From positions 90,001 to 122,000 of the forward strand of contig CP065004.1 of assembly GCA_016700135.1 (NCBI GenBank): a stretch of 32,000 nucleotides of DNA. The letters are read 5' to 3'. Origin of the DNA: Candidatus Saccharimonadota bacterium (GTDB taxonomy: Bacteria > Patescibacteriota > Microgenomatia > UBA1406 > GWC2-37-13). The stretch's first letter is position 1; each line of letters starts with the position of its first letter. The notes below the pieces were generated by a model. The model was not told the origin of the DNA. It was given only the letters and a program-made list of their open reading frames with translations, and ran no database searches. Position numbers and translations under genes: made by a program. Of the stretch, positions 1-32,000 are shown piece by piece.

Positions 1-978
1 CTGGTATTTGAAGAACGGAAAAAACTGCCTGAAACGGTACGTACGCTGATGCCCTTTTTTCTTGCTTTTACATTCATCACTATGCGGTGGTACTTCAACT
101 TTGCGCGTTTCGGATTTGAAGCCAGTACCGTACTTTTTTTTGAACTCGCCGGAATTTACTCTCTGTTTCTGTTCAGAAAAACAAAATCGTTATGGTATGT
201 CTTCTGGACGGGCATTGCTGCCGGACTGGCATACAATTCGTACACCCCCGGCAGAATATTTTTTATCCTTCCCTTGATCTTTCTCATCTGGGAATACGGA
301 AGTCTGAAGCAAATCCGCAGAAACTTCGACAAACCCGTACTTCTTTTTATAATACCCTTTCTCTTACTGATCATACCGCTCAATCTGTATTTCACTCAGC
401 ATGACGATAACCGAATCTATGAGCTCTTTTATTTGCAAAACGAGCAGCTTTCTCTTCAGGAAAAGGCAACCTACACCTGGCAAAATGTGACAAGTCTCAC
501 CGGTATGTTCTTTGTGAAGGGTGATATGAACGGTCGCCATAACTATCCGGGGAAACCCATGCTCAATCCGATTCAGGGAATCCTCCTTGTCGGCGGTATT
601 ATTGTCAGTTTGTACAACTGGAAAAAATACCATAACTCATTCTTTCTCCTGTATTTTGTGCTCGGTATGCTTCCGCCGATGATGACGTATCCGTGGGAAA
701 ACCCGAATGCTCTTCGATCGGTGACGGTACTCCCTTCTGTTGTGTATTTTATCGGACAGGCACTGGTTTATATAACCCGCTTTCCTCTACCGAAAAAGTG
801 GATTTTATTGGGGATATTTGTTCTTTTGAGTTTTTCAGCAATTTATGAACTGCGAACGTATTTTGTATTTCAGAAACTCGTGTTTCCAGAAGCTTTTGAA
901 CTGAACACCAATCTTATTAAGCCGTATCTTGAAGGAAATTATTTTCTTGATCCGAATAAACCGAGACAGACGTTATGA
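1..978 (+). CDS. C-terminal part of a GT-C-type (ArnT/PMT_2-like) integral membrane glycosyltransferase; the 5' end lies upstream of the window
   Basis: Frame 1 is open from nt 1 (LVFEERKKLPETVRTL precedes the first ATG at 49). There are several hydrophobic helices. The loop FVKGDMNGRHNYPGKP resembles the KGDxNxR loop of the paralogs at 20774 and 30507. The TGA stop overlaps the next start (ATGA at 975-978). Confidence 0.6.
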   Translation: MVFEERKKLPETVRTLMPFFLAFTFITMRWYFNFARFGFEASTVLFFELAGIYSLFLFRKTKSLWYVFWTGIAAGLAYNSYTPGRIFFILPLIFLIWEYGSLKQIRRNFDKPVLLFIIPFLLLIIPLNLYFTQHDDNRIYELFYLQNEQLSLQEKATYTWQNVTSLTGMFFVKGDMNGRHNYPGKPMLNPIQGILLVGGIIVSLYNWKKYHNSFFLLYFVLGMLPPMMTYPWENPNALRSVTVLPSVVYFIGQALVYITRFPLPKKWILLGIFVLLSFSAIYELRTYFVFQKLVFPEAFELNTNLIKPYLEGNYFLDPNKPRQTL

Positions 979-2444
979 AAAACCTAAGTAAAATCCTTTC
1001 AAAGCATTATCCGGTAATAATCTACCTGTTCATTTTCACCGTTTTGTTTTCAGTAAAACTGATTCAGAACCCGTTTCCGTTTTTTGATTGGGATGAATCA
1101 ATATATGCCGAAGTCGGCTATGAAATGGTTCATCAGATCTCACCTGCCGTGCCGCTGTGGCAGGGGCAATACTGGCTGGACAAACCGCCGCTTGTTCCGC
1201 TTTTTTACGGCGTCGTGATGCTGATTACGCCTTTTTTACAGCCTGAAATATCCACAAGACTTGCGACATTATTTTTGTCTGTGTTCGCACTAGGTCTTTT
1301 GTACGCTCTGTACTATCGTGTCCTGAAAGAAACGTGGATTACGACACTGGTCGTGATGATGACCTCACTTACCTCGATTTTTCTGCAGCGCGCACAGGTA
1401 CTGAATGTCGATGTTTTCCTTCTGATCGGATGGCTGGGATATGTTTTGTTTTACAGAAGATTCTGGACTTCCCTGATTTTTCTGTCATTCTCAGTTTACA
1501 GCAAATCTCTCATCGGATTTTACCCCATCGGGATCATGGGGCTTTACTTTTTCTTTGAAGCCGTGACGGGAAAAATTTCCTGGAAGGAGTTTGCAAAAGA
1601 ACTCGGAAGAATGATATTGCAGGCTGGAATACTTCTTATTTGGCATCTTGCGATGTTTCTCCGTTTCGGACCTACATTCTTGTATCAGCATTTTTATGAG
1701 AGTCATGTCAAAAGGGTTACGGCATCAATAGAATCCCATTTCGGTCAGAGGACCTTTTACATCGATCTCCTGACGATCGAGTACGGGAAATATATTTTCT
1801 TCTCTGCACTCGGTTTTATCATTCTGTTCTATCAATGGATCAGAAACCAACTTAACGATAAAAAAGTTTTGTATAGTTATCTTTTCTTGCCGTGGTTTGT
1901 ATTTCTGAATCTCACCAAAACTAAAATATTCTGGTACGGTCATCCTTATCTCGGACAGTTTGCATTTCTGATGGTATACCCGATTACCTTATTGAAAAAG
2001 ATTAAACTTTTTTACTTCGGAATAATTATCATACTAATGAGTCTGATCATACAGCATTACTTTTTCCGAACGAATGTACTGGATGATTTTTATTCATCAA
2101 ATGATCCGCATCACGAATTGTCAGTGTATGCCAATGATTATTGTCAGGACCTCTATGTTGTGGTGGAACCCGAAGGAAGAGAGGCATCAAAAACACTCGA
2201 AGAACTCGGACTTTTGATATCGACAAGCAGATGGTGGGGCAATCATCCGTCGATGGTGTATTACTTCGACGGGAATATCCGTTTTGTCTATACTCTCGAA
2301 GAGTTTGAACAGGAGATCAGAACCCCGCAAAAAGATACCTGCTTTGTCCTGAATAAAAATGACACGGAAGGTCTGGATTTAGTCGGATCGCTGGATCAGC
2401 TGCAGTCATTTGATCCGCTCTTGCTCTACCTGTATTCGTACTAA
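975..2444 (+). CDS. ArnT/PMT_2-like GT-C membrane glycosyltransferase (489 aa)
   Basis: TM1 is followed by the loop FFDWDESIYAEVGYEM ... YWLDKPPLVPLFYG. This matches the DE-containing first outer loop and PPL motif of GT39/GT83-type enzymes. The protein is polytopic with a C-terminal soluble region of about 110 aa. It is closest in style to the gene at 24721-26187. Confidence 0.7.
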   Translation: MKNLSKILSKHYPVIIYLFIFTVLFSVKLIQNPFPFFDWDESIYAEVGYEMVHQISPAVPLWQGQYWLDKPPLVPLFYGVVMLITPFLQPEISTRLATLFLSVFALGLLYALYYRVLKETWITTLVVMMTSLTSIFLQRAQVLNVDVFLLIGWLGYVLFYRRFWTSLIFLSFSVYSKSLIGFYPIGIMGLYFFFEAVTGKISWKEFAKELGRMILQAGILLIWHLAMFLRFGPTFLYQHFYESHVKRVTASIESHFGQRTFYIDLLTIEYGKYIFFSALGFIILFYQWIRNQLNDKKVLYSYLFLPWFVFLNLTKTKIFWYGHPYLGQFAFLMVYPITLLKKIKLFYFGIIIILMSLIIQHYFFRTNVLDDFYSSNDPHHELSVYANDYCQDLYVVVEPEGREASKTLEELGLLISTSRWWGNHPSMVYYFDGNIRFVYTLEEFEQEIRTPQKDTCFVLNKNDTEGLDLVGSLDQLQSFDPLLLYLYSY

Positions 2445-2469: not shown

Positions 2470-4005
2470 ATGTTCTCACTTGAAGAAATATGGACATTTC
2501 TGAAAAAAAATGTCACAAAAAAAGATATTGTTGCAGTTGTTGTGTTAGTCGTGCTCTTTCTCGCGGTTCGACTTATCAATCTGGATAAATGGCCTCAGTT
2601 TTCTGATGAAGGAATTTACATCAACTGGGCAAAAGTCGCCTGGAAAGATGCCTCATGGCGATTCATTTCCGTGACTGACGGCCGTCAGCCGCTCCAAACC
2701 TGGGCTACCATTCCTTTTCTGAAACTTTTTTCTCCGAATGATCTGTTTGCGGGACGAATGTTTGCAGTCGCTTCCGGATTTGCCGGATTTATCGGCATGT
2801 TTGCATTACTTTTTTATCTGTGGGGAAAAAAAGCAGCTTATATCGGAGCTTTGCTGTATATTTTTCTTCCGTATCTTGTCTTTTACGAAAGAATTGCGCT
2901 GGTTGATGCCGCCGTCAATGCCGGTTTTATTTGGATTCTTCTTTTTTCCTTTATTCTTGTCAGGACGAGGAGACTTGATATCGCACTGATCATGGGGTTC
3001 ATCGGAGGTATGGCACTTCTTGCAAAGTCATCTTCACGTATGTTTTTGGGGCTGACAGCTGCCGCACCTGTTTTATATCTCAGCACCAAAACGAAAAAAA
3101 TTATTTCCCAAAGCATTAATTATTTTTTCCTTCTCGGTATCGTAGCCGCGATCAGTTTGCTTTTTTACAATGTGCAACGGCTTTCTCCTTATTTTCATTA
3201 TGTCGAGCAGAAAAACACGACCTTTATCCTGACTGCGGAAGAATTTTTCGCTGATCCTTTTGCATATTTTCAACATAATGTTTTCAATATTCCGTTGTAC
3301 ATCGCCTGGGAATCAGGTTGGTTTATCATCCCTCTTAGCATTGCCGGACTATTCCTTCTTTTCCGAAAAGAAAAGCTTACTGCTTTATATCTTTCCGTTT
3401 TTATCTTTGTGCCGTATATTGCAATTGCTCTGTTTGCCCGGGTACTTTTTCCGAGATACGTACTGTTTTACAGTACTCTGATCATTATTACGGCAGTGTA
3501 CTTTTTTTTGAATATCAAATCAGTCAAACTGAGAAACGTCACACTGGGAGTACTTCTGTTTAGTATGATGCTTTTCAGTTACCCGTTTCTTTTTGATCCT
3601 GCAAAAGCCAGTTTCCCTCCTGTTGATCGCGGACAGTATGTTGAGGGTCTGACATCGGTATGGGGTGCCGAAAACCTGATGGGAACCGTTCAGGAAAACG
3701 CTCAAAACAGACAGACACTCGTCCTTGCCGAAGGAGATTTCGGACTGGTAGCGGATGTACTCAGAGTATATGATCAGCCTGATGATAATGTTGAGATTAA
3801 AGGTCTTTGGCCGCTGACTGAAGAAAGTCTCTACGAGTATCAGCCTGAACTTTCTAAAAGAGATGTGTATGTGGTGTTTTCTCATCAACAGGAATTCCCA
3901 GATCAATGGCCGATCGAGCTTGTGGCAAAATATGACAAGCCGGGAAACAAAAAATCACTGTATCTTTTTAAGCTGTTGAAGGTATCTGATGAACCGTCAC
4001 CATAA
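2470..4005 (+). CDS. GT-C-type membrane glycosyltransferase (511 aa), PMT_2-like
   Basis: ATG at 2470. TM1 (VAVVVLVVLFLAV) is followed by WPQFSDEGIYINWAKVAW. There are many hydrophobic helices and a C-terminal soluble domain of about 130 aa. Confidence 0.6.
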   Translation: MFSLEEIWTFLKKNVTKKDIVAVVVLVVLFLAVRLINLDKWPQFSDEGIYINWAKVAWKDASWRFISVTDGRQPLQTWATIPFLKLFSPNDLFAGRMFAVASGFAGFIGMFALLFYLWGKKAAYIGALLYIFLPYLVFYERIALVDAAVNAGFIWILLFSFILVRTRRLDIALIMGFIGGMALLAKSSSRMFLGLTAAAPVLYLSTKTKKIISQSINYFFLLGIVAAISLLFYNVQRLSPYFHYVEQKNTTFILTAEEFFADPFAYFQHNVFNIPLYIAWESGWFIIPLSIAGLFLLFRKEKLTALYLSVFIFVPYIAIALFARVLFPRYVLFYSTLIIITAVYFFLNIKSVKLRNVTLGVLLFSMMLFSYPFLFDPAKASFPPVDRGQYVEGLTSVWGAENLMGTVQENAQNRQTLVLAEGDFGLVADVLRVYDQPDDNVEIKGLWPLTEESLYEYQPELSKRDVYVVFSHQQEFPDQWPIELVAKYDKPGNKKSLYLFKLLKVSDEPSP

Positions 4006-5680
4006 TCCCATGCTGTCTTCTATTTTGAAAAAATACGGATTGATTGTCATTTGTGCCGTACTTGTCTTTCTTTTCGGCCGGAGCCTTAATCCCTTCGACA
4101 ACAATACATTTCTCGGTCATGACGAAACTCAACCTGCCCGGATTATCGAATTTGCATTTGATATCCGAAACGGTCATATCCCTCCTCGAATCTCTCCTCA
4201 TATGTCTTTCGGAATGGGATATCCCATTTTTAATTATTATGCACCGACAGCGTATTGGATTACTTCTTCGCTTTTGCTTGCCGGCCTGGATGTGACGGCG
4301 TCGCTTGAAGTTTCGTATCTTGCAGCATTTCTTCTGGCCTTTATCGGAATGTATTTATTTCTTAAGAAATATTTCAATGAAGTTCCGGCGCTTATCGGAG
4401 GCTTGGCTTATGTTTCTTCTCCTTTCATTGCGGTAGATATTTTTATCAGGGGAAATCTTGCTGAAATGTGGTTTTTTGCGCTGTTCCCGTTTGGATTATG
4501 GATACTGACTGTTGTTTCAAAACGCAGTATCGGTATTGCAGCCGTTATTCTGGCATTCGTCTTTACATCACATAATATTTTTTCCCTTGTTTCCGTACCG
4601 CTTCTGATTCTTTTTGCGCTTATTCAAAAGAATAGAATATGGGGTGCTCTCTCCATCGCTTTGGGACTTCTTTTGAGCAGTTACTTTTTGATCCCGGCAT
4701 TGTCTGAGCTGAAACTGGTGCAGGCCTCGGATATTGCCACCATCACACAGTATCAGAATCATTTCCTATGCCCCTATCAGGTCTGGTATTCACAGTGGGG
4801 ATTCGGAGGATCATCCGTCGGATGCATCAATGACGGGATGTCTTTTATGCTCGGGAAAATCCAGATTCTCGCCGGACTTGCGGGACTGGGATACTTTTTC
4901 TATCAGCTGAAAAAAACAAAGAAATCTTTTTCATGGCTGACTGTCGGTATGGCGGGACTGTTACTCGGAAGTTTTTTTATGACGACAGCATACTCGCTGT
5001 TTCTGTGGAAAGCCTTTGAGCCGATACTTTCCGTATTTCAGTTTCCCTGGAGATTTCTCCTGTTTGTCATTTTCGGACTTGCCTTTTTCACTGCGTATCT
5101 TCTCGATACCATCCCGAAAAAATGGAAATTGCTTGCAGCCGTTATGATTTCCATCGGTATTTTTTATCTCAATCCGAAGTTTTTTACGGGGAATATGAGG
5201 AGTGTTCAGACCGTGATAAATACTTTTGCTTCAGACTCATATATTTTCAACACCTCCGCTTTTAAAGTAGCAGAATACCTGCCGATAACGGCAGATTATG
5301 AATATTGGCGAACTCTGGAAGGGAAAAAGGCCGAAACGACCGGACCGATTGCTCTGCAGCCCGAACAGGAAGTGCAAGTACTGAGAAATGAACCGTTTGA
5401 AAAAATTGCAGTCGTCCGAAGTCAGCACGATGTGGCTTTAAATATCCATTATGCCCCTTACTGGATTATTTCCCGAGAAGGAAAGCAAATCATCCCGACG
5501 ACATTTGACAAACTCGGTCGCCCGATCATCGATGTTTCAAGTGCAGAATTCGAAACGATCACGATCAGATATCAGGAAACGATGATCGAGCATGTCGCAA
5601 ACGGAATTACGGCCGTAGGAGGTATAATAATACTTATCTATTCATACATCCAAATTCGATGGCACAGGAAGAAAATATAA
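3989..5680 (+). CDS. PTPS-related/YfhO-like polytopic membrane protein (563 aa), putative GT-C glycosyltransferase
   Basis: Motifs LGHDETQPARIIEF, FGMGYPIFNYYAP, IRGNLAEMW and QFPWRFLLF. The C-terminal soluble domain ends in a final TM anchor (ITAVGGIIILIYSYI). It aligns by eye with the paralog at 15923-17575. GAAGG lies 6 nt upstream of the ATG. The gene overlaps the upstream gene by 17 nt. Confidence 0.55.
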   Translation: MNRHHNPMLSSILKKYGLIVICAVLVFLFGRSLNPFDNNTFLGHDETQPARIIEFAFDIRNGHIPPRISPHMSFGMGYPIFNYYAPTAYWITSSLLLAGLDVTASLEVSYLAAFLLAFIGMYLFLKKYFNEVPALIGGLAYVSSPFIAVDIFIRGNLAEMWFFALFPFGLWILTVVSKRSIGIAAVILAFVFTSHNIFSLVSVPLLILFALIQKNRIWGALSIALGLLLSSYFLIPALSELKLVQASDIATITQYQNHFLCPYQVWYSQWGFGGSSVGCINDGMSFMLGKIQILAGLAGLGYFFYQLKKTKKSFSWLTVGMAGLLLGSFFMTTAYSLFLWKAFEPILSVFQFPWRFLLFVIFGLAFFTAYLLDTIPKKWKLLAAVMISIGIFYLNPKFFTGNMRSVQTVINTFASDSYIFNTSAFKVAEYLPITADYEYWRTLEGKKAETTGPIALQPEQEVQVLRNEPFEKIAVVRSQHDVALNIHYAPYWIISREGKQIIPTTFDKLGRPIIDVSSAEFETITIRYQETMIEHVANGITAVGGIIILIYSYIQIRWHRKKI

Positions 5681-7095
5681 AAAAAAATTCGATCATCAGT
5701 CTTTTGAGTCTTTTTTTTCACAGCGGATATGCCGCGGTTCTCGGTTTGATTGCGAATCTGATCCTGACAATTGTACTGTCGCCGAAGATTTATGGGATCT
5801 ATGTATTAACCCTTGCCGTTATTCCCTTTCTGAACTTCTTTTCTGATATCGGTCTTGCCGCCGCACTTGTCCAGAAAAAGGAAGTCACTGACGACGATAT
5901 CAAAACGACATTTACTATACAACAAACGCTTGTCATTACAATCCTGTCGATAGCTTTCTTCCTTACGCCGTTCATCCGCAGTTTCTACAACCTTCCTGTT
6001 GAAGCGACACATTTATACTGGGCTGTACTGTTTGCTTTTTTCCTCTCATCATTGAAAACAATTCCCTCTATCAAACTCGAAAGAAGTATTCAGTTTCAGA
6101 AAATCGTCCTCGTACAGATTGTCGAAAGTACGATTTTTTACGTTACGGTGTCGGTACTGGCACTGATGAACTTCGGATTGCAGACATTTACCATAGCCGT
6201 ACTTGTCCGATCACTCACCGGAACACTTCTCATGTATTACCTTTCATTCTGGTTTCCCCGCATCGGCGTATCAAAAGAAAGTCTCAAACGACTTCTCTCT
6301 TTCGGTGTACCGTTTCAGACCAATGTATTTTTGGCTCTCATCAAAGATGATCTCATTTTGTTTTATCTCGGAAAAGTAGTCGGACTTGAAGGACTGGCAT
6401 ATATCGGATGGGCAAAACGCTGGGCAGAATCTCCGATCCGAATTATCATGGACAATGTGTCACGCATTCTCTTCCCGATTTTCGCAAAAATCCAAACGGA
6501 AAAGGAACGGATCGGCGGACTTATCGAAAAAGTGCTTCGATATCAAACACTTATTCTCGCTCCAGTTTTTGTCGGAATGGCACTCCTTCTTGATGAGGCA
6601 GTACAGCTTATCCCGAAATACAATAAATGGGAACCGGCTATTCCTCTTTTTTATATCATTATTCTTTCGGCGTTTTTCTCGTCTTACTCGACTCCGTTTA
6701 CGAATCTCTTTAATGCCGTCGGAAAAGTAAAGACTACATTCAAATTTATGCTCTACTGGACAGTCATGTCATGGATAAGTATCCCTCTTTTTACTCACTT
6801 TTTCGGACTGTACGGGTATCCTATTAGTCTGGTGATTCTGTCTCTTACTTTTATTGTGATTGTTCCCATTGCAAGGAAGATTGTTAAGTTTAAGTTTATT
6901 CCTCAGATCGTACCGCCGATTGTTTCCAGTTTGATTATGGGTATTGCTGTTTACTTCACTACCTTTTTGGGTGTAAGCTGGATTAGTGTCTGCATCTCAG
7001 TTGCAGTCGGATTCCTAACCTATGTCGCATCGTTGTATCTTCTGTTCAGAATTAATGTGTTACAGGAGGTAAAAACTTTTTTGAAATATGAGTAA
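5659..7095 (+). CDS. MOP-superfamily polysaccharide/oligosaccharide flippase (Wzx-like, Polysacc_synt family), 478 aa
   Basis: About 12-14 hydrophobic helices. The N-terminal pattern (KNSIISLL..GYAAVLGLIANLILTIVLSPKIYGIY ... DIGLAAALVQKKE) is typical of Wzx/RfbX-like polysaccharide biosynthesis proteins. No large soluble domain. Confidence 0.75.
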   Translation: MAQEENIKKNSIISLLSLFFHSGYAAVLGLIANLILTIVLSPKIYGIYVLTLAVIPFLNFFSDIGLAAALVQKKEVTDDDIKTTFTIQQTLVITILSIAFFLTPFIRSFYNLPVEATHLYWAVLFAFFLSSLKTIPSIKLERSIQFQKIVLVQIVESTIFYVTVSVLALMNFGLQTFTIAVLVRSLTGTLLMYYLSFWFPRIGVSKESLKRLLSFGVPFQTNVFLALIKDDLILFYLGKVVGLEGLAYIGWAKRWAESPIRIIMDNVSRILFPIFAKIQTEKERIGGLIEKVLRYQTLILAPVFVGMALLLDEAVQLIPKYNKWEPAIPLFYIIILSAFFSSYSTPFTNLFNAVGKVKTTFKFMLYWTVMSWISIPLFTHFFGLYGYPISLVILSLTFIVIVPIARKIVKFKFIPQIVPPIVSSLIMGIAVYFTTFLGVSWISVCISVAVGFLTYVASLYLLFRINVLQEVKTFLKYE

Positions 7096-7978
7096 TATCA
7101 CAACTATTATCGTCGCTCTCGGAGAACCGAAATATCTTTTTGAATCAATCAAATCGGTGCAAACCCTTACTGCTGAAATCGTAATTGTGGATATCGGCTT
7201 GAGTACTTCTGTCAGAGAGAAATTGAAAAAGATTGAGAAAGTCAGAGTAGTCGAACAAGAACCTGTATCATATGTCGAACTTATCCGTGAAAAAACAAAA
7301 CAGTTTACAAAGACAGATTACATTCTATTCCTCGATCCCGATGAAATCGTTCCGGAAACATTAGCCTCACAAATTCTTGAGAACTATGAAAAATATGATT
7401 ACATATCGATGCCACGGATGAATATGATACTCGGAAAGTGGATGGAGAACTCTAGATGGTGGCCTGATTATCAAATAAGAGTTTTCAAAAAAGATGCCGT
7501 CACATGGCCTACGATCATTCATGAACAACCAGAAACTTCAGGAAACGGATACAAACTTCCTGATGAAAAAGAGAACGCGATTCTTCATCATAACTATGAA
7601 TCACTCGATGAGTACCTTGAAAAAATGATCCGTTATGCCAAATCAGATGCGAAAAGCCGGAAAACATATTCACTTCAATCAGCACTCTCTGACGGAACCC
7701 GTGAATTTATAAGCCGGTATTTTGCTGCCGACGGATACAAAGACGGGATGCATGGCTTTACTCTCTCATTTTTACAGCTGATGTATTACGGACTGGTATA
7801 TTTTTACTTCTGGGAACAACACAAATATATTTCGGAAGAAAAAGACATTCCGCGCACAACCCAATCCTTTTTTACGGATATTTTTTACCAAACAAATCAT
7901 TGGGGTATAAAGAAGAATCTGTTTTCTTCACAGGAATCATTGTGGTACCGGATTATTAACAAACTCCTCAAGCATTAA
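7088..7978 (+). CDS. Family 2 glycosyltransferase (GT-A fold), 296 aa
   Basis: N-terminal beta-strand TTIIVALGE, IVIVDIG, and a DxD-like ILFLDPDEIV. Shares the motif SRWWPDYQIRVFKK with the GT2 at 27788 (GGWWPDHQMRLLNKK). Overlaps the upstream gene by 8 nt. Confidence 0.75.
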   Translation: MSNITTIIVALGEPKYLFESIKSVQTLTAEIVIVDIGLSTSVREKLKKIEKVRVVEQEPVSYVELIREKTKQFTKTDYILFLDPDEIVPETLASQILENYEKYDYISMPRMNMILGKWMENSRWWPDYQIRVFKKDAVTWPTIIHEQPETSGNGYKLPDEKENAILHHNYESLDEYLEKMIRYAKSDAKSRKTYSLQSALSDGTREFISRYFAADGYKDGMHGFTLSFLQLMYYGLVYFYFWEQHKYISEEKDIPRTTQSFFTDIFYQTNHWGIKKNLFSSQESLWYRIINKLLKH

Positions 7979-20718: not shown

Positions 20719-20739
20719 ACCTCTAGTTTAGCACTACTC

Positions 20740-20761: not shown

Positions 20762-20773
20762 TTATAGTAACTG

Positions 20774-23526: not shown

Positions 23527-24721
23527 AGTTCGGAAAACGTTTGTGCAACGTAAAAACAATCAGTATGTAGATCGGAAAGTACAGAATCATAAGGTATCGT
23601 GGTGAAATCGGAATAAAAAGAAGATACATAAGGGCAATAACCACCCACATCGAAAGAAATATCCCAAATGAATCAGGCAGTTTTGAAGAAATTGCATGTT
23701 TTTTCTCAAACACGATTTTTTTTGCCGTAACGACAAGCATGGTGACAGCAATTCCCATCCCTGCGAGAAAATACACCGGCCAGAATATCGACCAGTGCTC
23801 GTATGAAATATAAGGTTCAGTACCCCACCATACTTTCCATTTGTTGAAAAGGACAAACGGGACAATGTTCCCCCATACGGAAGCCGTATCAATGGAGTTA
23901 TTTTTCCAGAAAAGAAAAATCCATTTTTGGACACCAAGGAATGTCCTGACGGTTCCTCCCTGAATAAAAAGCATAAGATACGACATCATGTATGTCAGAC
24001 CGGCAAGCACTGAAACTCCTGAAATAGAAATAGCGTCTGCGGTTAGTTTTTTCCTTTTGCCGAACAGATTAAGTATCCCGAGATAGATTGCAGAAACGGT
24101 AAGCAGAACAATCACCGGAAAGAATAATTTTATACCGGCCATCGCACCGGCCGATAATCCCATCAATAATAGATAGAGCTTCTTTGATGTTTGTAAATAT
24201 AAAAGAAAAAACAGTATATACGCAAGAAGAAATGACACCTGAATAATATCAAGTATCGGTGCATAATACAGCTGATCACGAAAAACTGTGTCGGTTGAGA
24301 GAAAAAAAATTCCCAACAGTACCCCGTTCCGGGATGCCGTTAAACGGTAGATAATCACGGAAACAATAAGATAGACAAGAAAACCGAAAACAAGCGATGA
24401 AACCCGGTTATTTCCGCTTAACACCGTAATCCATCCGATAATATATTTACCTAGGGGTGGGTGGTCAGAATTAATGAGAATCGGATTAAGACCGTGGACA
24501 TAGGCATACCCGGCATGACTCAAGAGCATTTCATCTGATATATAATGCTTAGACTGAGGGATTACATACTGCGACTTGTTGTAGCTGTCTTCATATTGTT
24601 TCGCATCATACTTCTCGGTATATCGTTCGAATTCAGAAATGACCGGTATGATATGCCATATGAACGTCACTAATGCCGCCGCAACGAGAATTATGGTAAT
24701 ATGTTTTTTTTGTATTTTCAT
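23519..24721 (-). CDS. PMT/PMT_2-like GT-C membrane glycosyltransferase (400 aa)
   Basis: TM1 is followed by the loop YISDEMLLSHAGYAYVHGLNPILINSDHPPLGKYIIGW, a DE motif plus HPPLGKY as in protein O-mannosyltransferase-like enzymes. Polytopic. The start overlaps the upstream stop by 1 nt (TAATG). Confidence 0.65.
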   Translation of the reverse strand: MKIQKKHITIILVAAALVTFIWHIIPVISEFERYTEKYDAKQYEDSYNKSQYVIPQSKHYISDEMLLSHAGYAYVHGLNPILINSDHPPLGKYIIGWITVLSGNNRVSSLVFGFLVYLIVSVIIYRLTASRNGVLLGIFFLSTDTVFRDQLYYAPILDIIQVSFLLAYILFFLLYLQTSKKLYLLLMGLSAGAMAGIKLFFPVIVLLTVSAIYLGILNLFGKRKKLTADAISISGVSVLAGLTYMMSYLMLFIQGGTVRTFLGVQKWIFLFWKNNSIDTASVWGNIVPFVLFNKWKVWWGTEPYISYEHWSIFWPVYFLAGMGIAVTMLVVTAKKIVFEKKHAISSKLPDSFGIFLSMWVVIALMYLLFIPISPRYLMILYFPIYILIVFTLHKRFPNYV

Positions 24722-26187
24722 TATGGCGGGCTGACAATTACAAACGAATTATTTTTATCAAGGATGCGATATTCGATCCCCTCCGCCTCAAGATTCTGGA
24801 TAGCCCATATACGTGTTATTGCAACAAAGTCGGATCTCTCCGATCGGAACACCTTAACAAGTGTTGATCTCTCCTCAGGTTCATAAGAGACCTGTTTCAT
24901 GAATTTACCCGAATAAAAGACTGCCATCGGAAGAAAATCATCATCAAGATATATCTTCTGATCATATTTAGCTGCTTCCTTTGCGATCGCAACATCATCC
25001 GTCACGTATCTTGAATTTGGAATGACTTCATTATAAAAAACTTTCACCTGGATTCCTGCAATAAACACAATTGCAAGTATAAAAACTCCGGCAATTACCC
25101 TTTCGGATACATAGGTATTTATAAACTTTTGAACGGGTAAAACCGGAAATTTTTTTATAATTGTTACGGCAAAATTCCCAAGTTCCCACAAACCGTAAGC
25201 TACAATCAGCGATAACGGCAGATACACGGGAATGAGATGCCATATGTGGGTTTTATCCGTCGTCAGAAAGGGATACAATACTACCCCATTCCAAAAGAGA
25301 ATAATAAAAGCATTTCGTTTGATAAAGCGGAGCGTGATAATCAACGCGCCCAGCCCGAGATTCCACAAATAATACCACTTCCTTATTCCCATATGAAGAT
25401 AAAAGAGCGGAAGCTCATAGTTGAGACTGAAGTACGAAGCGGCAGTTTTGCTCCTTGTCCCGATTTCAAGAAAATGATGGGCAATAAAATCAGGGTATGT
25501 CAAAATATGCATGATATACCAGGGCCCGACAACGAAAAGAAATGCTGCAATTCCTCCCAAAAGCCATAGAATATTTTTTTTAATTTCCATGATGCGGGGA
25601 AACATAATCACACCGATCACCGGCAATGCAGAAATCCCGACCAGTGTTTTGGTCATCATAAGGGCTCCGAAAGCCAGCCCAACAAGAGGAAACAATTTGA
25701 TGTTTTTAACTGATTTGAGAGCAAGATATATTGTCAGGATATAGAAAAAAACGAAAGGAGAATCCAAATTCCCCGAACGCACCCTTATGACATACCATAC
25801 AGATGTACCGAGAATAAGTGCTGCGGCAAAACCTACTGCTTTTTTTTTGAATAATTCAGATCCGGTAAGATACACCAGAACAATCGAAAAAATTCCGAGA
25901 AGAACGGAAGGTAATCTCGTTGTAAACTCCGAAACGCCGAAAAACATATATGTCACCGCCATAATCCAGAACCCCATCGGCGGATGATCATAGAACGGAT
26001 ACCCGTTCCAGTTGGAGTACATGAAATCACCGCTTTTTGCCATTTCACGTGCTATCGAGCCGTACCAGGCTTCATCCCAGCTTCCGAGATTGGGCCAGTG
26101 CATTCTGAAGAAAAAAAGCGGTACAAATATCACGAGCAACACAATCAGATACCAGTCAAAACGAAATCGATTCGGGTTTGACTTCAT
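24721..26187 (-). CDS. ArnT/PMT_2-like GT-C membrane glycosyltransferase (488 aa)
   Basis: LGSWDEAWYGSIAREMAKSGDFMYSNWNGYPFYDHPPMGFWIMA is a textbook-looking ArnT/PMT_2 N-terminal loop. Polytopic with a C-terminal soluble domain of about 110 aa. Confidence 0.8.
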   Translation of the reverse strand: MKSNPNRFRFDWYLIVLLVIFVPLFFFRMHWPNLGSWDEAWYGSIAREMAKSGDFMYSNWNGYPFYDHPPMGFWIMAVTYMFFGVSEFTTRLPSVLLGIFSIVLVYLTGSELFKKKAVGFAAALILGTSVWYVIRVRSGNLDSPFVFFYILTIYLALKSVKNIKLFPLVGLAFGALMMTKTLVGISALPVIGVIMFPRIMEIKKNILWLLGGIAAFLFVVGPWYIMHILTYPDFIAHHFLEIGTRSKTAASYFSLNYELPLFYLHMGIRKWYYLWNLGLGALIITLRFIKRNAFIILFWNGVVLYPFLTTDKTHIWHLIPVYLPLSLIVAYGLWELGNFAVTIIKKFPVLPVQKFINTYVSERVIAGVFILAIVFIAGIQVKVFYNEVIPNSRYVTDDVAIAKEAAKYDQKIYLDDDFLPMAVFYSGKFMKQVSYEPEERSTLVKVFRSERSDFVAITRIWAIQNLEAEGIEYRILDKNNSFVIVSPP

Positions 26188-27787: not shown

Positions 27788-28597
27788 ATGAAAAACGACA
27801 AAATAACAGTTCTCATTCATACTCACAATGAAGAAAAGAATATTAAGGAATGTATCACATCAGCCCGGATACTAAGTAACGAAATCATTGTGATTGACAT
27901 GGAAAGCACTGACAGGACGACTGAGATTGCAACAAGTGAAAACGTAACGATAAAAACTTTTCCTTTCTCACACTATGTAGAGCCCGCGCGTGAGTTCGGC
28001 ATCAGACAGGCATCAACCGACTGGGTTTTCATTCTTGATGCTGATGAACGCATGACACAGGAATTGACTGATGAGATAAATGGACTAACCGGACCATCCC
28101 CCCTATCATCTACAACCTACAGCCTACTATCTACTCACTACAAAGTCCCCCGGAAAAATATTTTCGGAAAACAAAAATGGCTCAAATATGGTGGCTGGTG
28201 GCCGGATCATCAGATGAGATTGTTGAATAAAAAATCATTTAAGGAGTGGCCTGAACGTATACATTCAACTCCCGTTTTTGAAGGGGATTTGGGCTATTTG
28301 GAAAACCCGATTTTACATTATTTTCACGGTGACATTGAGCAGATGGTCAACAAAACAATGATATTTGAAGATATCGAATCAGATCTTCTTTTTCAAGCGA
28401 AAAGACCGGTCGGGACACTGACTTTTTTCCGGAAGTTTTTCGGAGAATTATTCCGCCGTCTCATACTTAAAAAAGGTTTTATGGACGGGACAATTGGTAT
28501 AATTGAGAGTTTCTATCAGGCATATTCGAAAACAATCACCTATTTGTTTTTGTATGAAAAATACTACAACGAAAGAAAAAAAAGCGGCTCTGTATGA
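27788..28597 (+). CDS. Family 2 glycosyltransferase (269 aa), paralog of 7088-7978
   Basis: ITVLIHTHNEEKNI, IIVIDMESTDRT, VFILDADERM (DxD) and GGWWPDHQMRLLNKK. Confidence 0.8.
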   Translation: MKNDKITVLIHTHNEEKNIKECITSARILSNEIIVIDMESTDRTTEIATSENVTIKTFPFSHYVEPAREFGIRQASTDWVFILDADERMTQELTDEINGLTGPSPLSSTTYSLLSTHYKVPRKNIFGKQKWLKYGGWWPDHQMRLLNKKSFKEWPERIHSTPVFEGDLGYLENPILHYFHGDIEQMVNKTMIFEDIESDLLFQAKRPVGTLTFFRKFFGELFRRLILKKGFMDGTIGIIESFYQAYSKTITYLFLYEKYYNERKKSGSV

Positions 28598-29642
28598 TCC
28601 GTATTTTGATACGATGGGAGGAGGAGAAAAACATATCCTTTCAATTCTCAAGGTATTGGACGATCATGATTATGAGATCACGATATACTGGGATACTGAT
28701 TTAACGGATGAGATTGTACAAAAACTGGGTTTGAAATTTAAGCGTATCCGCTTTAAAAAAAATATTTTCAAATACGGAGATCTTCTTACAAAAACAAAGG
28801 AACTATCGCAATACGATAGGTTTTTCTATGTCACTGACGGCAGCTATTTTTTCTCTACTGCCAAACAAAATTTCGTGTTCTGCATGGTCCCTCAGAAATC
28901 GTTATACAACATGGGCGTTGCTAATAAACTTAAAACAAGAAATTTTCGTTTTATTGCAAACTCTGAATTTACACGTAACTGGCTGAGCAAATGGGGTATG
29001 CAAGCAGAGGTAGTGTATCCCTATTTACCGGATGAATACATCAACCGGGATACTCAAAAGAAGGAAAAAATAATTCTGAGTGTTGGGAGGTTTTTCCGCC
29101 AGCTTCACTCTAAAAGACAGGATATTGCAATACAATGGTTCATTGATCTGCAAAAAGCCGGTGACAGATACAAAGATTACGAGCTCCACTTGGCTGGAAG
29201 CGTCCTCCCTTCTGACACGGAATATCTGCAAGAGTTGCAGGAGTCAGCAAAAGGCAATCAGAATATTCATTTTCACACTAATATTTCTTATGCGGATGTT
29301 TTAACATTGTACAAAAGAGCAGAATATTATTGGCACTTCGCCGGATATGATATCGATCAGGAAGAACATCCTGAGCGGACTGAACATCTCGGCATCACGC
29401 CTCTTGAAGCTATGGCATCGGGATGTCTCACATTTGCCTATCGGGCAGGAGGTCCTTCAGAAATTATTCAGGACAATGAAACAGGGTTTCTCTTCAGAAC
29501 GCAGGAAGAACTTTTTGAAAAAATGAAAAGTGCTGAAGATATCAGGACAGAAGTACTGTCATCTGCAAAAGCATACGTAAGCAGGAATTTTTCTTACCAG
29601 ACATTCCGTAAACAAGTTGAACACATTATTCTCAATCAATGA
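28554..29642 (+). CDS. Family 4 glycosyltransferase (GT-B fold, Glycos_transf_1), 362 aa from ATG 28554
   Basis: AALYDPYFDTMGGGEKH at the N-terminus, and the C-terminal EX7E region EHLGITPLEAMASGCLTFAYRAGGPSEIIQDNETGFLF. The tracked ORF start at 28503 is a TTG. ATG 28554 gives a typical GT4 N-terminus but overlaps the upstream GT2 by 44 nt. Confidence 0.8.
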   Translation: MKNTTTKEKKAALYDPYFDTMGGGEKHILSILKVLDDHDYEITIYWDTDLTDEIVQKLGLKFKRIRFKKNIFKYGDLLTKTKELSQYDRFFYVTDGSYFFSTAKQNFVFCMVPQKSLYNMGVANKLKTRNFRFIANSEFTRNWLSKWGMQAEVVYPYLPDEYINRDTQKKEKIILSVGRFFRQLHSKRQDIAIQWFIDLQKAGDRYKDYELHLAGSVLPSDTEYLQELQESAKGNQNIHFHTNISYADVLTLYKRAEYYWHFAGYDIDQEEHPERTEHLGITPLEAMASGCLTFAYRAGGPSEIIQDNETGFLFRTQEELFEKMKSAEDIRTEVLSSAKAYVSRNFSYQTFRKQVEHIILNQ

Positions 29643-30535
29643 ATATCTCAGTAATCATACCCACATATCGCAACACTGAAGTGCTTCTCAAAAATCTGAA
29701 GCATAACCTGCCCTACCTTGACGGATGCGAAATTATTGTAGTAAATGATTATCCGAAGCAAACAATAAAAAAAGACCTTAATCAATTCGCGCAGATCAGA
29801 GTGATTGAGAACATGACAAACAAAGGATTTGCCGGAACGGTAAATACGGGAGTCAGAGAAGCAACAAGAGATTATATTCTTCTTCTTAATGATGACGTAA
29901 AACTGCTGAATAGCTCATATAAAAAAGCATTTGATCAGCTTCAGGAAGATAAAACGCTGTTTGCAGTATCATTCGCCCAGAAAGAAACAAACGGATCAAT
30001 CGTCGGGAAGAACATGATCTATTGGAAAAACGGTTTTCTACAGCATCAGGCGGTCAAACCGGATACTGCCGGTCCGAATGCCTGGGCGGAAGGGGGCTCC
30101 TGTCTTGTTGATAAGAAAAAATTTGATGAACTGCACGGCTTTGATGAGATGTTTAACCCTTTTTATTGGGAAGATATTGATCTTTCATATCGGGCGTGGA
30201 AAAAAGGATATCGGATCGAGTTCAATCCGCAGATTTTAGTGGAACACCATCATGAAACAACCATAAGCAGTCATTTCCAAAAGGACCGTATCGAGGCAAT
30301 TGCATACAGAAATCAGTTGTTATTCACTTGGAAAAATATCTCTTCATGGGATCTCCTGATCGCTCACAAACTGCATCTTATCAAGAGACTTGTAAGCGCT
30401 ATAATGAAAAATGATGTCAATTTTCTTGAGGGTTTTATCCAGGCTCTGAAGCGATTTCCTCAAGCCTTTATTAAACATTTCAGGAATCCGAAATTACGTT
30501 CTGATCATGAACTACTTAAAACATTTACTCAATAA
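29639..30535 (+). CDS. Family 2 glycosyltransferase, WbbL/rhamnosyltransferase-like subgroup (298 aa)
   Basis: ISVIIPTYRN, IIVVNDYP, NKGFAGTVNTGVREA, LLLNDDV and FYWEDIDLSYRAWKKGYRI. ATGA overlap with the upstream gene. Confidence 0.8.
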   Translation: MNISVIIPTYRNTEVLLKNLKHNLPYLDGCEIIVVNDYPKQTIKKDLNQFAQIRVIENMTNKGFAGTVNTGVREATRDYILLLNDDVKLLNSSYKKAFDQLQEDKTLFAVSFAQKETNGSIVGKNMIYWKNGFLQHQAVKPDTAGPNAWAEGGSCLVDKKKFDELHGFDEMFNPFYWEDIDLSYRAWKKGYRIEFNPQILVEHHHETTISSHFQKDRIEAIAYRNQLLFTWKNISSWDLLIAHKLHLIKRLVSAIMKNDVNFLEGFIQALKRFPQAFIKHFRNPKLRSDHELLKTFTQ

Positions 30536-32000
30536 AAAAGCTTATCTGCTGCTGGCACTGTTTACTTTTGTAACGGTGATGCTTCATATGAGACAGATTG
30601 AATTCCCCTGCTTCAACTCCGATGAAGCATCTTTTGCATACAACGCTTATTCAATCGCAAAAACGGCACGTGATGAATACGGGACGCTACTCCCGACGCG
30701 TTTTAAAGCATTCGGAGAAAATAAACTTCCCGTCACAATCTATACGATTGCCGCGTTCGTCGGTCCATTGGGACTGAGCGAGACAACGGCACGACTGCCG
30801 TTTATTCTCATCGGAATTATTTCTCCGATTCTCTTTTTTGTTTTAACAAAGAAACTAACCGGAAAAGAATCAATCGGACTTATAACGGCATTTCTAGCAA
30901 GCATCTCCCCGTGGATTCAGATCATGTCGCGACACATTCATGAGAATATCATCATGCTTGTATTAGTGATAGGTATGCTGTGGATTTTGTACGAACTGCA
31001 AAAAAAGGTGACAATGAGGAGACTTCTTTTCCTTTCTCTCCTGGTCGGAATCGGCCTTTTCACCTATCACATCGGGAAAGTAATAGCAGTGTTTGTACTG
31101 ATGTGGGTAGCGTATTTGATACTGTTGAAAAAACAAAACCGTTCCCATATGAAAGAAGCTGCGGTTATTTTTGCAATCCCATTTGTCATCTTCGGGGCAA
31201 CGGAGTTGATGAACCCGACAAGCCGCATAAGCAATTTACTTTTTACAAGCAACAAAGGATTTACCCTCTCTATTGAAGAACTTCGCAAAGAGCATGATTC
31301 GCGCATAGTTCACAACAAAATCTCAAAATCCGTTTCCGTCCTTTCGAATCAGTACCTTTCTTATTTCTCCCCTGAGTTTTTAGTAAGAAAAGGTGATAAC
31401 AACGCAAGATTCGGATTTGAAGGAATATCTCCTATAACTCCGGTAACCTACATATTTATTCTTATCGGACTGTATTTTATGTTCAAAAACAGAGAAGAGT
31501 CGCGATTTTTGCTAGTGTCACTGATGCTTACGGCACCGCTTTCTGCAGCACTGTCATGGCAGGAATATTCTCTGACCAGATCATTTTTGCTTATTATTCC
31601 TTTCCTGATTTTTGCATCTTACGGGATATATCACGGTACTCTCACGTTTAAGAAAACTTCTTTTAGAATCCTTTTTCTGACAGTTGTTCTTGGAAGTATT
31701 CTCTATTTCAATTTCTTCAGCTGGGATTTTTACTTCAATCACTATCCGAAGCGTGTTGAGGCAATTTACGGATGGCAGTGCGGATATAAAAATATGGGCC
31801 AATACATCAAGGAAAATTACAATAATTTTGAGAGGTTTTATATCACCAAAAAACTGGGACAGCCGTATATCTTTACTCTGTTTTATCTGCAGTATCTGCC
31901 TTCTGATTACCACAAGCAGGCTGAACTGACTGAGCTTGACGAATACGGTTTCGGGCAGGTAGAGAAATATGACAAATTCATTTTTGATATGCCCGAGCCG
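30507..32000 (+). CDS. PMT_2/ArnT-like GT-C membrane glycosyltransferase, paralog family A; the 3' end lies beyond the window (498 codons seen)
   Basis: Absent from the ORF track because no stop is reached. My translation from ATG 30507 gives MNYLKHLLNKKAYLLLALFTFVTVMLHMRQIEFPCFNSDEASFAYNAYSIAKTARDEYGTLLPTRFKAFGENKLP ... VRKGDNNARFGFEG ... RFYITKKLGQPYIFTLFYLQY. The frame is open to nt 32000. Overlaps the upstream gene by 29 nt. Confidence 0.7.
   Translation, partial: MNYLKHLLNKKAYLLLALFTFVTVMLHMRQIEFPCFNSDEASFAYNAYSIAKTARDEYGTLLPTRFKAFGENKLPVTIYTIAAFVGPLGLSETTARLPFILIGIISPILFFVLTKKLTGKESIGLITAFLASISPWIQIMSRHIHENIIMLVLVIGMLWILYELQKKVTMRRLLFLSLLVGIGLFTYHIGKVIAVFVLMWVAYLILLKKQNRSHMKEAAVIFAIPFVIFGATELMNPTSRISNLLFTSNKGFTLSIEELRKEHDSRIVHNKISKSVSVLSNQYLSYFSPEFLVRKGDNNARFGFEGISPITPVTYIFILIGLYFMFKNREESRFLLVSLMLTAPLSAALSWQEYSLTRSFLLIIPFLIFASYGIYHGTLTFKKTSFRILFLTVVLGSILYFNFFSWDFYFNHYPKRVEAIYGWQCGYKNMGQYIKENYNNFERFYITKKLGQPYIFTLFYLQYLPSDYHKQAELTELDEYGFGQVEKYDKFIFDMPEP

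Follow-up and report, generated by a model that had tools for sequence, protein, structure and literature searches.

What is served by a region of a small bacterial genome, that of an uncultured host, in which most of the coding capacity is devoted to membrane glycosyltransferases? The window (the whole 32,000-nt stretch of DNA analyzed here) covers most of a ∼36-kb conserved chromosomal island of Candidatus Roizmanbacteria (Microgenomates, CPR/Patescibacteria) and carries 24 genes, 23 plus one for an IS1595 transposase (Table 1). Sixteen of the 24 (not counting the MOP flippase) encode polytopic membrane proteins and occupy 23,298 bp, in agreement with the earlier note, which gave 16 of 23 non-IS genes and ∼23.3 kb. 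Spacing between the island genes is tight, and stop and start codons frequently overlap; genes for GT-C proteins outnumber those for cytoplasmic transferases about three to one. Each part belongs to a known enzyme type; together they point to an elaborate surface glycan, undescribed so far. No published description or characterized equivalent of the island was found, in line with the earlier view of its novelty. The ORF list does not include the full g1 and g24 because both run off the window; in that list, the segment from 30.5 to 32 kb appears empty, although it is coding.

Table 1. Genes and other features of the window, with positions and the principal evidence for each assignment
Feature	Assignment	First-loop motif	Position	Strand	Evidence or remark
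g1	GT-C (PMT_2-type), C-terminal 309 aa		1..978	+	N-terminus outside window
g2	GT-C, ArnT/PMT_2-like, 489 aa	WDE	975..2444	+	BLASTP to g19 1e-6
g3	GT-C, PMT_2, 511 aa	SDE	2470..4005	+	Pfam PMT_2 1.6e-7, over cut-off
g4	GT-C, PTPS_related, 563 aa	HDE	3989..5680	+	Pfam PTPS_related 1.3e-8; g12 paralog
g5	MOP (Wzx-type) flippase, 478 aa		5659..7095	+	Pfam Polysacc_synt_3 2.7e-47
g6	Soluble GT2		7088..7978	+	Pfam Glycos_transf_2 8.9e-8; g21 paralog, BLASTP 1.7e-21
g7	Secreted or anchored, 682 aa, unnamed family		7982..10030	+	N-terminal hydrophobic segment, then soluble body
g8	GT-C, g11 (GT39-like) family, 545 aa	IDE	10034..11671	+	g11-family HMM 2e-53; BLASTP to g11 1.4e-19
g9	Truncated GT-C derivative, 356-374 aa		11659..12783	+	hhalign to g11 family
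g10	GT-C, GT87	HND	12743..14131	-	Pfam GT87 1.3e-6, over cut-off; PIG-U below cut-off; true start probably 14083
g11	GT-C, PMT/PMT_2 (GT39-like), 579 aa	NDE	14173..15912	+	Pfam PMT 4e-9, PMT_2 7e-9
g12	GT-C, PTPS_related, 550 aa	SD	15923..17575	+	Pfam PTPS_related 1e-13
g13	GT-C fold, no Pfam model, 562 aa		17556..19244	-	AF2 model and Foldseek
g14	Soluble GT2		19236..20060	+	Pfam Glycos_transf_2 1.1e-10; weak to rhamnosyltransferase, GlfT2
IS1595	IS1595-family insertion sequence		20031..20763	-	Transposase g15, 20044-20718, Pfam DDE_Tnp_IS1595 1.7e-27
g16	GT-C, g11 family, 548 aa	HDE	20774..22420	+	g11-family HMM 7e-41
g17	GT-C, MptA/MptB-like, ∼370 aa	SHD	22417..23559	-	NCBIfam MptA 4.7e-8, MptB 6e-7, both below cut-off
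g18	GT-C, PMT_2, 400 aa	SDE	23519..24721	-	Pfam PMT_2 1.2e-10
g19	GT-C, ArnT-like (PMT_2/PMT), 488 aa	WDE	24721..26187	-	Pfam PMT_2 4e-23
g20	GT-C, PMT_2, ∼502 aa		26191..27765	-	Pfam PMT_2 5e-9
g21	Soluble GT2, SunS/GmaR-like N-terminal half		27788..28597	+	Pfam Glycos_transf_2 6e-17
g22	GT4 (GT-B)		28503..29642	+	Pfam Glycos_transf_1 3.7e-24; orthologs 360-362 aa; true start probably 28554
g23	Soluble GT2		29639..30535	+	Pfam Glycos_transf_2 9e-18
g24	GT-C, g8/g11 family	SDE	30507..32000	+	Runs off window end

All 16 polytopic proteins are of the GT-C type or derived from it, according to Pfam, profile, or fold evidence; the initial assignment stands, with the reservation that g9 lacks the catalytic loop. 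Half of them (g3, g4, g10, g11, g12, g18, g19, and g20) pass the Pfam thresholds for PMT/PMT_2, PTPS_related, or GT87, and g11 is 100% identical to the NCBI entry [quoted passage not shown] Five more (g1, g2, g8, g16, and g24) are joined to these by family-HMM or BLAST searches. Thus, the g1 fragment matches the g11-family HMM at 3e-14 (model positions 124 to 420), and its full-length ortholog in the related contig L013 (432 aa, 91% identity) matches PMT_2 at 8.6e-11. The g24 frame is open for 488 codons and gives blastx matches to g8 (1e-22) and P0119 (4e-42); a full-length, 97%-identical copy of 554 aa is present in L007. The remaining three are the MptA/MptB-like g17, whose 53%-identical ortholog has a precomputed match to PF26314 (MptA_B_family), the truncated g9, and g13, recognized by its fold. 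The GT-C set comprises at least five deeply diverged groups, namely, the ArnT/PMT_2-like proteins, the GT39-like g11 family, the PTPS_related proteins, the GT87 and MptA/B-like proteins, and one group without a Pfam model. The PTPS_related (g4/g12) and ArnT-like groups were connected by hhalign with 96% probability.

Given that 7 of the 16 proteins have no Pfam match of their own, it could be argued that most of them serve in transport or as structural components of the membrane and only resemble GT-C enzymes. The fold of g13 argues otherwise. Neither g13 nor its 120 homologs matched any Pfam or NCBIfam model. In Foldseek searches of the PDB with its AF2 model (pLDDT 93.3, pTM 0.91), the best 13 matches were all GT-C enzymes, 9 of them at E values of 5e-7 to 6e-4, and these best matches included the OST translocon (9n9j), DPY19, PglB, AglB, AftA, ArnT, AftD, EmbA-EmbB, and AftB. 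The top GT-C matches had a probability of 1.00 and TM-scores of 0.38 to 0.50, whereas all matches to transporters were far weaker (E > 0.1, probability ≤0.13, TM-score of ∼0.1). The g9 protein is the only one of the 16 without an acidic first-loop motif, a point in favor of the nonenzymatic reading. Its hhalign match to the g11 family (96% probability, E = 3e-9) spans only residues 145 to 308 against model positions 294 to 468, only 11 homologs were found, and its AF2 model (pLDDT 76) has weak best matches that are again GT-C folds (ALG12, 6e-3). Lacking the catalytic loop, g9 is perhaps not an enzyme at all. The other 15 proteins are covered by profile links and the conserved Asp, so that the nonenzymatic interpretation of most of the set is largely refuted and highly improbable.

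The acidic motif follows TM1 in 14 of the 16 proteins as encoded in the window and in a 15th, g1, as read from its full-length ortholog (ALDE); the previous figure of at least 12 was conservative. In the window it takes the forms WDE, SDE, HDE, IDE, NDE, SD, ND, HD, and TD. The WDE of g19 aligns with the D-E pair after TM1 of ArnT (phmmer match to 5ezm at 1.9e-11), and W-D-E is invariant in the alignment of g2 with the g19 orthologs. The Asp residue is invariant among the orthologs of g2 (25/25, full-length), g3 (21/21, as is the Glu), g4 (12/12), g11 (8/8), g17 (8/8), g24 (7/7), and g19 (6/6), the comparison resting on one or two orthologs each for g8, g10, and g12 and on none for g16. In g13, the invariant Asp lies within GVHxHDxIWH (D53, 42 sequences). 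The N-terminal tails are short, rich in Lys and Arg, and almost devoid of Asp and Glu, and the first loops, except in g9 and g17, are 45 to 98 aa long and in most cases net acidic. The conserved Asp-containing loop of the 15 proteins is predicted to face outward, as had been supposed.

The other genes of the window include, as listed in the earlier note, those for one MOP flippase, four GT2 enzymes, and one GT4 enzyme, to which the product of g7 has to be added. The flippase also matches the NCBIfam MOP flippase model (3.9e-37, under the equivalog cut-off), and the PDB matches of g21 are GmaR (6e-10) and SunS (1e-8). As a single sequence, g7 had no match in Pfam, NCBIfam, or the PDB. Its family has 654 representatives, in two of its members the protein is joined to a polytopic membrane domain (YfhO-like in one case), and the family profile matches PDB 3lm3 at 1e-5; g7 is a possible glycan-modifying partner. 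The IS1595 element, bounded by 29-nt terminal inverted repeats, is outside the glycosylation system. No gene of the window matched the phosphoglycosyltransferase, Wzy/Wzz/ligase, ABC transporter, or nucleotide-sugar families, again as previously noted.

The impression of very few cytoplasmic partners is correct within the window but is partly an effect of its edge, because a polyprenyl-phosphate GT2 of the DPMS/ArnC/GtrB type is encoded directly upstream of the g1 ortholog in L013 (L013:7985-8734), a relative with 84 to 91% identical proteins from which, rather than from the source genome, the left flank was read. Its best match is DPMS (5mlz, 3e-17), followed by ArnC (8e-14) and GtrB, and the implied lack of a donor-making enzyme is likewise partly due to where the window ends. 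This was the only DPMS-type donor synthase seen; no dedicated polyprenyl-P-monosaccharide flippase of the GtrA or ArnE/F type was seen. Two further membrane proteins (one PMT_2) are encoded just upstream in a close relative. The island is bordered on the right by housekeeping genes after g24 and on the left, beyond the extra upstream genes, by MacB-type ABC, HlyD, and fpg genes.

Conservation of the island as a unit, proposed as a check in the earlier note, is evident in dozens of related contigs, which are syntenic at 40 to 97% protein identity. The blocks g1-g6, g5-g14, and g17-g24 are kept in L001-L003, L005, L007-L009, L012, and ∼20 metagenome loci, and one-to-one orthologs and gene order persist down to ∼40% identity, which argues for linked, nonredundant roles. 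Such persistence speaks against a set of independent GT-C transferases, each adding one or a few sugars to different acceptors, such as S-layer or pilus proteins (compare bacterial Pmt), membrane lipids (compare ArnT), or wall polymers (compare YfhO), and clustered through old tandem duplication and common lipid-linked donors. This explanation is compatible with the data as well and deserves to be taken seriously but is rather doubtful. It agrees with the closest annotated relatives being protein O-mannosyltransferases and ArnT, with solitary homologs in unrelated contexts elsewhere (L004), with the differing gene content of relatives (L002 lacks g10 and g16 and has other paralogs), and with the single donor synthase, which would suit many enzymes using one donor. 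However, the Wzx flippase and five cytoplasmic glycosyltransferases imply a lipid-linked oligosaccharide, not single-sugar transfers alone, and the GT87 and MptA/B types (mycobacterial PimE, MptA, and MptB) are known chain builders.

Differences among relatives could also indicate a rapidly changing surface-variation locus, where paralog gain and loss, aided by insertion sequences, would alter the glycan for phage escape or host matching; the size of the island would then mirror turnover, not a need for 16 steps. The IS1595 element indeed lies inside the island and adjoins g16, for which no ortholog was found in the syntenic loci of the relatives compared, and some relatives lack g10 and g18 or have other genes in their place. 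However, identity among the paralogs is only 21 to 29% (BLASTP), which makes the duplications old; most of the genes have same-order orthologs over a wide identity range; and GC content varies little along the window (38 to 43%). This scenario appears improbable.

We lean, with some reserve, toward the view that the island serves to make or decorate a glycoconjugate of the cell envelope, with most of this work taking place on the outer side of the cytoplasmic membrane. The best reading, plausible by analogy with mycobacterial LAM but unproven, is an assembly line outside the membrane. The upstream GT2 would charge polyprenyl phosphate with single sugars, and the cytoplasmic GT2 and GT4 enzymes would assemble a short lipid-linked primer, a step that is a guess because neither the window nor ∼10 kb of flanking DNA in relatives yielded an initiating phosphoglycosyltransferase. 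The Wzx-type flippase would carry the primer outward, where the GT-C enzymes, each specific for a particular linkage or acceptor, would extend, branch, or transfer the glycan; the secreted g7 may modify the product. We infer the sequential action of the GT-C enzymes from their clustering only.

Several known systems share parts of this inventory. Wzx/Wzy polysaccharide or O-glycosylation loci likewise combine a MOP flippase with soluble GT2 and GT4 enzymes, but the island is devoid of Wzy, Wzz, ligase, and initiating phosphoglycosyltransferase genes. The matches of g19 to ArnT (GT83) and of the upstream GT2 to ArnC recall the modification of lipid A; however, the island has many paralogs instead of one and lacks the other arn genes, ArnE/F, and the lipid A pathway. 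CPR bacteria are not known to possess an outer membrane. The resemblance to protein O-mannosyltransferases (GT39, bacterial Pmt) consists of the Pfam PMT matches of g11 and g19 and the D-E motif in loop 1, but the scores are low (37 to 42 bits), and there is no MIR domain. The YfhO/PTPS_related system of teichoic acid glycosylation, with CsbB/GtrB-type donors, is echoed by g4, g12, and the YfhO fusion in the g7 family, but no teichoic acid genes were seen with the island, and the YfhO model matched none of the window proteins.

The machinery for LM/LAM and arabinogalactan in mycobacteria and corynebacteria (PimE, MptA/B/C, EmbA/B/C, AftA-D, and the Ppm1 donor synthase) likewise has many GT-C enzymes, and the island also has GT87 and MptA/B types and an adjacent DPMS/Ppm1-type GT2. 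In that machinery, outer-face GT-C enzymes (PimE, MptA, MptB, MptC, Emb, and Aft) use polyprenyl-phosphate sugars to extend a primer made by cytoplasmic GT4 and GT2 enzymes, building LM, LAM, and arabinogalactan in the way outlined above. In contrast, most members of the island resemble ArnT/PMT or PTPS_related proteins rather than Emb/Aft, no genes for arabinose or decaprenyl-phosphoribose were seen with it, and its host is a CPR bacterium. In mycobacteria, the GT-C genes are scattered across 4.4 Mb of genome and no more than a few are neighbors, whereas the island packs 16 to 18 of them into ∼36 kb of a 1.45-Mb contig.

By open reading frame listing, translation, and hydropathy scanning, the window holds 24 genes, 16 of which, not counting the flippase, encode polytopic membrane proteins. 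Together these span 23,298 bp, the same figure as the ∼23.3 kb counted in the earlier note. The single MOP flippase, four GT2 enzymes, and one GT4 enzyme listed there were likewise found (see the table below), and no match to a phosphoglycosyltransferase, Wzy/Wzz/ligase, ABC transporter, or nucleotide-sugar enzyme was seen among the 24 genes, in line with the reported lack of these families. GC content is even along the window (38 to 43%), and the Rfam and tRNA scans of it found nothing. The stretch from 30.5 to 32 kb, which seems empty at first sight, corresponds to g24 rather than to an RNA or a pseudogene; code 11 already gives an open frame +1 there, so that reading UGA as a sense codon is not needed. 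The likely starts of the divergent genes g13 and g14 overlap by 9 nt; as a promoter would then have no intergenic space, one of these starts may be misplaced. The left repeat of the IS1595 element overlaps the last 30 nt of g14.

Positions of the features in the window and in loci of relatives (L numbers); percentages are protein identities
Feature	Position	Description
g1	1-978	C-terminal 309 aa of a longer membrane protein, cut at the window edge
g5		MOP/Wzx flippase
g6, g14, g21, g23		Four soluble GT2 enzymes
g7	7982-10030	Secreted 682-aa protein
g9	11659-12783	Short membrane paralogue
g13, likely start	19244 (- strand)	Membrane protein
g14, start	19236 (+ strand)	GT2
IS1595-family element	20031-20763	Complete, 733 bp, 29-nt terminal inverted repeats
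g22		GT4, generic type
g24	30507, open to window end	488 codons; blastx 1e-22 to g8, 4e-42 to a g11-family protein
376-aa membrane protein	L013, 5381-6511 (- strand)	About eight TM helices
Second g13 paralogue	L002, 2626-4284	33% identity
g11 homologue	L004, 10001-11752	40% identity

The assignment of the 16 membrane proteins to the GT-C type, made in the earlier note from sequence inspection, is borne out: 8 of the 16 exceed the Pfam gathering cut-off of a GT-C family, and the rest are linked to them by profile, BLAST, or fold comparisons, with g9 as a truncated derivative. By hydropathy analysis, whose thresholds are crude, the 14 complete proteins each have 6 to 11 TM segments, the cut g1 has 4, and g24, which runs off the window, has 10. 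The PMT_2 and/or PMT models are matched above the Pfam cut-off by g3, g11, g18, g19, and g20, and PMT_2 also by the full-length g1 orthologue from the relative L013; g2, g8, g16, and g24 are not above the PMT/PMT_2 cut-off alone. Both g4 (34.2 bits) and g12 (51.1 bits) exceed the cut-off of 26.4 for PTPS_related (PF10131), and g10 passes GT87 (28.8 against 25). With g17, neither of the NCBIfam cut-offs is reached (MptA, 32 against 439; MptB, 28 against 40), and only an orthologue with 53% identity has a precomputed match to the MptA_B_family (PF26314).

The family HMM of g11, a GT39-like protein, was built from 120 homologues and matches g8 (2e-53), g16 (7e-41), g1 (3e-14), and g19 (4e-14). 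The same HMM matches neither the flippase nor the remaining membrane proteins, so that these matches are not an artifact of composition. The ArnT-like proteins g2 and g19 are linked by BLASTP and have an invariant W-D-E in common, and g24 is linked to g8 and the g11 family. In hhalign-type profile-profile comparisons, the PTPS_related pair (g4 and g12) is joined to the ArnT-like group with 96% probability and the g13 family to the g11 family with 75% probability. Searches of the PDB with phmmer, using g11, g10, g12, and g7 as queries, returned nothing useful, as these proteins are too distant for a single-sequence search.

Comparison of predicted folds was carried out for two of the 16 proteins, with a confident GT-C assignment for g13 and a weak one for g9. 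Neither g13 nor any of its 120 homologues has a match in Pfam or NCBIfam; all of these homologues come from Patescibacteria, and those with a source name are all called “hypothetical protein.” AlphaFold modeling of g13 on an alignment of 42 sequences gave a high-confidence structure (pLDDT 93.3, pTM 0.91), and every one of its 13 top-ranking PDB matches in Foldseek is a GT-C enzyme, including 9n9j (an oligosaccharyltransferase-containing translocon), DPY19, PglB, AglB, AftA, ArnT, AftD, EmbA-EmbB, and AftB. Nine of these 13 have E values of 5e-7 to 6e-4, and the first 12 have a probability of 1.00; transporters appear only with E values above 0.1 and TM-scores of about 0.1. A second g13 paralogue was detected in the relative L002.

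Homology of g9 to g11-type proteins is confined to their C-terminal half (g9 residues 145 to 308 against model positions 294 to 468; hhalign probability, 96%). The g9 protein lacks the long first loop with its acidic residue and yields a model with weak GT-C structure matches. Only 11 homologues were found in a search of 5.8 billion clusters, and g9 is kept beside g8 in relatives. We interpret g9 as a GT-C derivative that has been truncated and is possibly noncatalytic. Assignment of g13, g9, and g17 to the Wzy or O-antigen ligase type was rejected on fold and profile evidence. That most of the membrane proteins are not glycosyltransferases appears highly improbable.

An Asp-containing motif in the first loop after TM1, seen by the earlier note in at least 12 of the proteins, is present in 14 of the 16, and the ALDE motif of the g1 orthologue raises this number to 15; the exception is g9. 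In g17, the motif is placed after the third hydrophobic segment. The WDE of g19 aligns with the D-E pair after TM1 of ArnT (5ezm; E value, 1.9e-11), and a “DHPP” downstream of it aligns with the “EKPP” of ArnT. The first-loop Asp of ArnT was reportedly found by Petrou and colleagues in 2016 to be required for activity. The first-loop Asp of the window proteins is invariant in the orthologues of g2 (25/25 full-length sequences), g3 (21/21), g4 (12/12), g11 (8/8), g17 (8/8), g24 (7/7), and g19 (6/6), and D53 of g13 is invariant across the 42-sequence alignment; the sets comprised one or two orthologues each for g8, g10, and g12 and none for g16. The first loops are 45 to 98 aa long, except in g9 and g17, and net acidic in most of the proteins, and the short N-terminal tails contain K/R and almost no D/E. 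Together with homology to ArnT, the positive-inside rule supports the prediction that the first loop faces outside.

The borders of the island were read in close relatives, on the left in L013, whose proteins are 84 to 91% identical. On the right, the island ends with g24, since the genes that come next code for a CAAX protease, RpoD, DnaG, a LytR_C protein, a release factor, FtsE, FtsX, and an M23 peptidase. To the left of g1, L013 encodes a 249-aa GT2, a 495-aa PMT_2 protein, and a 376-aa membrane protein with no Pfam match, which may be a further GT-C-like member; still further left are genes for HlyD, an ABC ATPase, a MacB-type permease, Fpg, and a GT4. The best match of the 249-aa GT2 is dolichol-phosphate mannose synthase (DPMS; 5mlz, 3e-17), followed by ArnC and GtrB. 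Enzymes of this group put sugars onto polyprenyl phosphate and thereby supply GT-C enzymes. With this gene next to g1, the donor-making step is predicted to be encoded in the island, just outside the window. The observation that the membrane enzymes have very few cytoplasmic partners thus partly reflects where the window ends. The whole island would therefore comprise 17 GT-C genes and one further membrane protein gene in about 36 kb. The likenesses of the window's own GT2 enzymes are all weak: g21 and its paralogue g6 resemble SunS/GmaR, g23 resembles PglI/EpsD, and g14 resembles GlfT2/rhamnosyltransferase. These enzymes were rejected as donor synthases, since matches of these types are better than those to DPMS. 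An initiating phosphoglycosyltransferase, a Wzy polymerase, a chain-length regulator, or a ligase was found neither among the window genes nor in the flanks read in relatives.

The g7 protein has a signal-like N terminus and, as a single sequence, no match in Pfam, NCBIfam, or the PDB. Its family, for which Pfam has no model, comprises 654 cluster representatives, two of which (P0323 and P0396) are fusions: in one, a polytopic YfhO-like N-terminal half is followed by the g7-like domain, and in the other, the g7-like domain is followed by 12 TM helices. Such fusions suggest that g7 works together with GT-C-type membrane proteins. The family profile weakly matches the uncharacterized PDB entry 3lm3 (1e-5), which was presumably deposited as a putative glycoside hydrolase/deacetylase, and one member weakly matches DUF3863.

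Both g11 and g13 have 100% identical counterparts among the NCBI proteins of a Candidatus Roizmanbacteria bacterium. Synteny analysis recovers the same island in relatives, in overlapping blocks. Genes g1 to g6 are kept in about 20 metagenome loci (g2 identity, 42 to 84%); g5 to g9, g11 to g14, and g17 are kept in order in L001 to L003 (g11 identity, 63%); and g17 to g24 are kept in L007, L008, L009, and L012 (g24 identity, 97, 87, 73, and 52%, respectively). The island is rearranged in L005 (50%), with at least 8 GT-C genes, and the distant locus L006 (33%) carries five tandem PMT-type genes along with DUF2079, GT2, GT4, flippase, and epimerase genes. Homologues of the window GT-C proteins cover about 25 to 70% of the longer loci. 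Gene content varies to some extent: L002 lacks both g10 and g16 and has other paralogues, and none of the fetched loci carries an orthologue of g16, which adjoins the IS1595 element, so that this stretch looks strain specific. Such turnover is what a rapidly varying surface locus would display. However, within-window paralogues are only 21 to 29% identical, which indicates that the expansion dates far back and that every copy has since been retained, and a rapidly varying locus is accordingly considered unlikely. Four of the loci (L007, L008, L012, and L010; 52 to 97% identity to the island) come from MAGs titled “uncultured Gammaproteobacteria” or “Limisphaerales,” probably through binning errors. 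In a Patescibacteria MAG (L004), a g11 homologue stands alone in a complete-looking ilv/leu operon; amino acid biosynthesis of this kind is an unusual metabolic capacity for the group.

Full-text literature searches yielded no description of a GT-C-rich island in CPR/Patescibacteria/Roizmanbacteria, in line with its place in the earlier note as a candidate for an undescribed system; possible PIM synthesis genes have been discussed for a Saccharibacterium (PMC6031116). In public annotation, several members already carry the label “glycosyltransferase family 39 protein,” and the genes taken singly are therefore no novelty. What is new is the scale of the island and its conservation in a reduced genome, the unannotated g13 family of GT-C proteins, the truncated paralogue g9, and the g7 family with its fusions. 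The enzymes are of known types, and the advance would lie in scale, organization, and biology rather than in a new mechanism. The CPR/Patescibacteria account for much of bacterial diversity and spend their lives attached to other cells; to our knowledge, their envelope chemistry is almost unknown. The allocation of ∼2.5% of a 1.45-Mb contig to glycosyltransferases predicted to face outward suggests that surface glycans are central to this lifestyle, with possible roles in attachment, host recognition, and phage defense. The island is also compact enough that its genes could be introduced into a model host in order to identify the product, and it supplies at least one unannotated GT-C family (g13) and an unnamed secreted family (g7) that is fused elsewhere to GT-C-like proteins.

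The genes form a conserved and tightly packed island, in which GT-C-type proteins with a conserved loop Asp stand beside a Wzx flippase, cytoplasmic GT2 and GT4 enzymes, and a neighboring DPMS-type synthase. The earlier note envisaged an assembly line operating mostly outside the cytoplasm. In such a scheme, sugars would be loaded onto polyprenyl phosphate by the neighboring DPMS-type synthase, a primer would be made inside the cytoplasm and then flipped out, and the GT-C enzymes outside would extend, branch, or transfer the glycan. The present analysis leans slightly toward this scheme. Its main rival, in which the GT-C proteins are independent, acceptor-specific transferases with common donors, retains a substantial, if smaller, share of the probability. 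A more far-reaching form of the assembly line is somewhat doubtful: in Roizmanbacteria and allied CPR, the main polymer of the envelope, be it a lipoglycan or an S-layer or wall glycan, might be made almost wholly extracytoplasmically, on a dedicated line of 16 to 18 GT-C proteins that includes at least one family unknown to databases (g13), a catalytically dead partner (g9), and a new secreted modifier (g7). If this is true, LAM-like glycan assembly outside the cytoplasm would have arisen a second time, independently, and, at about 2.5% of the DNA, would be a major investment for a reduced genome.

Among known systems, the Wzx/Wzy-dependent pathway is represented here by its flippase only, whereas its initiator, Wzy, and regulator or ligase were not found in the window genes or in the relatives' flanks. 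In mycobacterial LM/LAM synthesis, a phosphatidylinositol (PI)-anchored primer is made by PimA/PimB-type GT4 enzymes, and PimE, MptB, MptA, and Emb-type steps then lead to a mannan/arabinan product. The GT4 enzyme of the island (g22) is of a generic type, and no PI synthase or Emb/Aft-type sequence match was seen. The likeness of the island to mycobacterial LM/LAM and arabinogalactan synthesis is one of working logic and not of membership.
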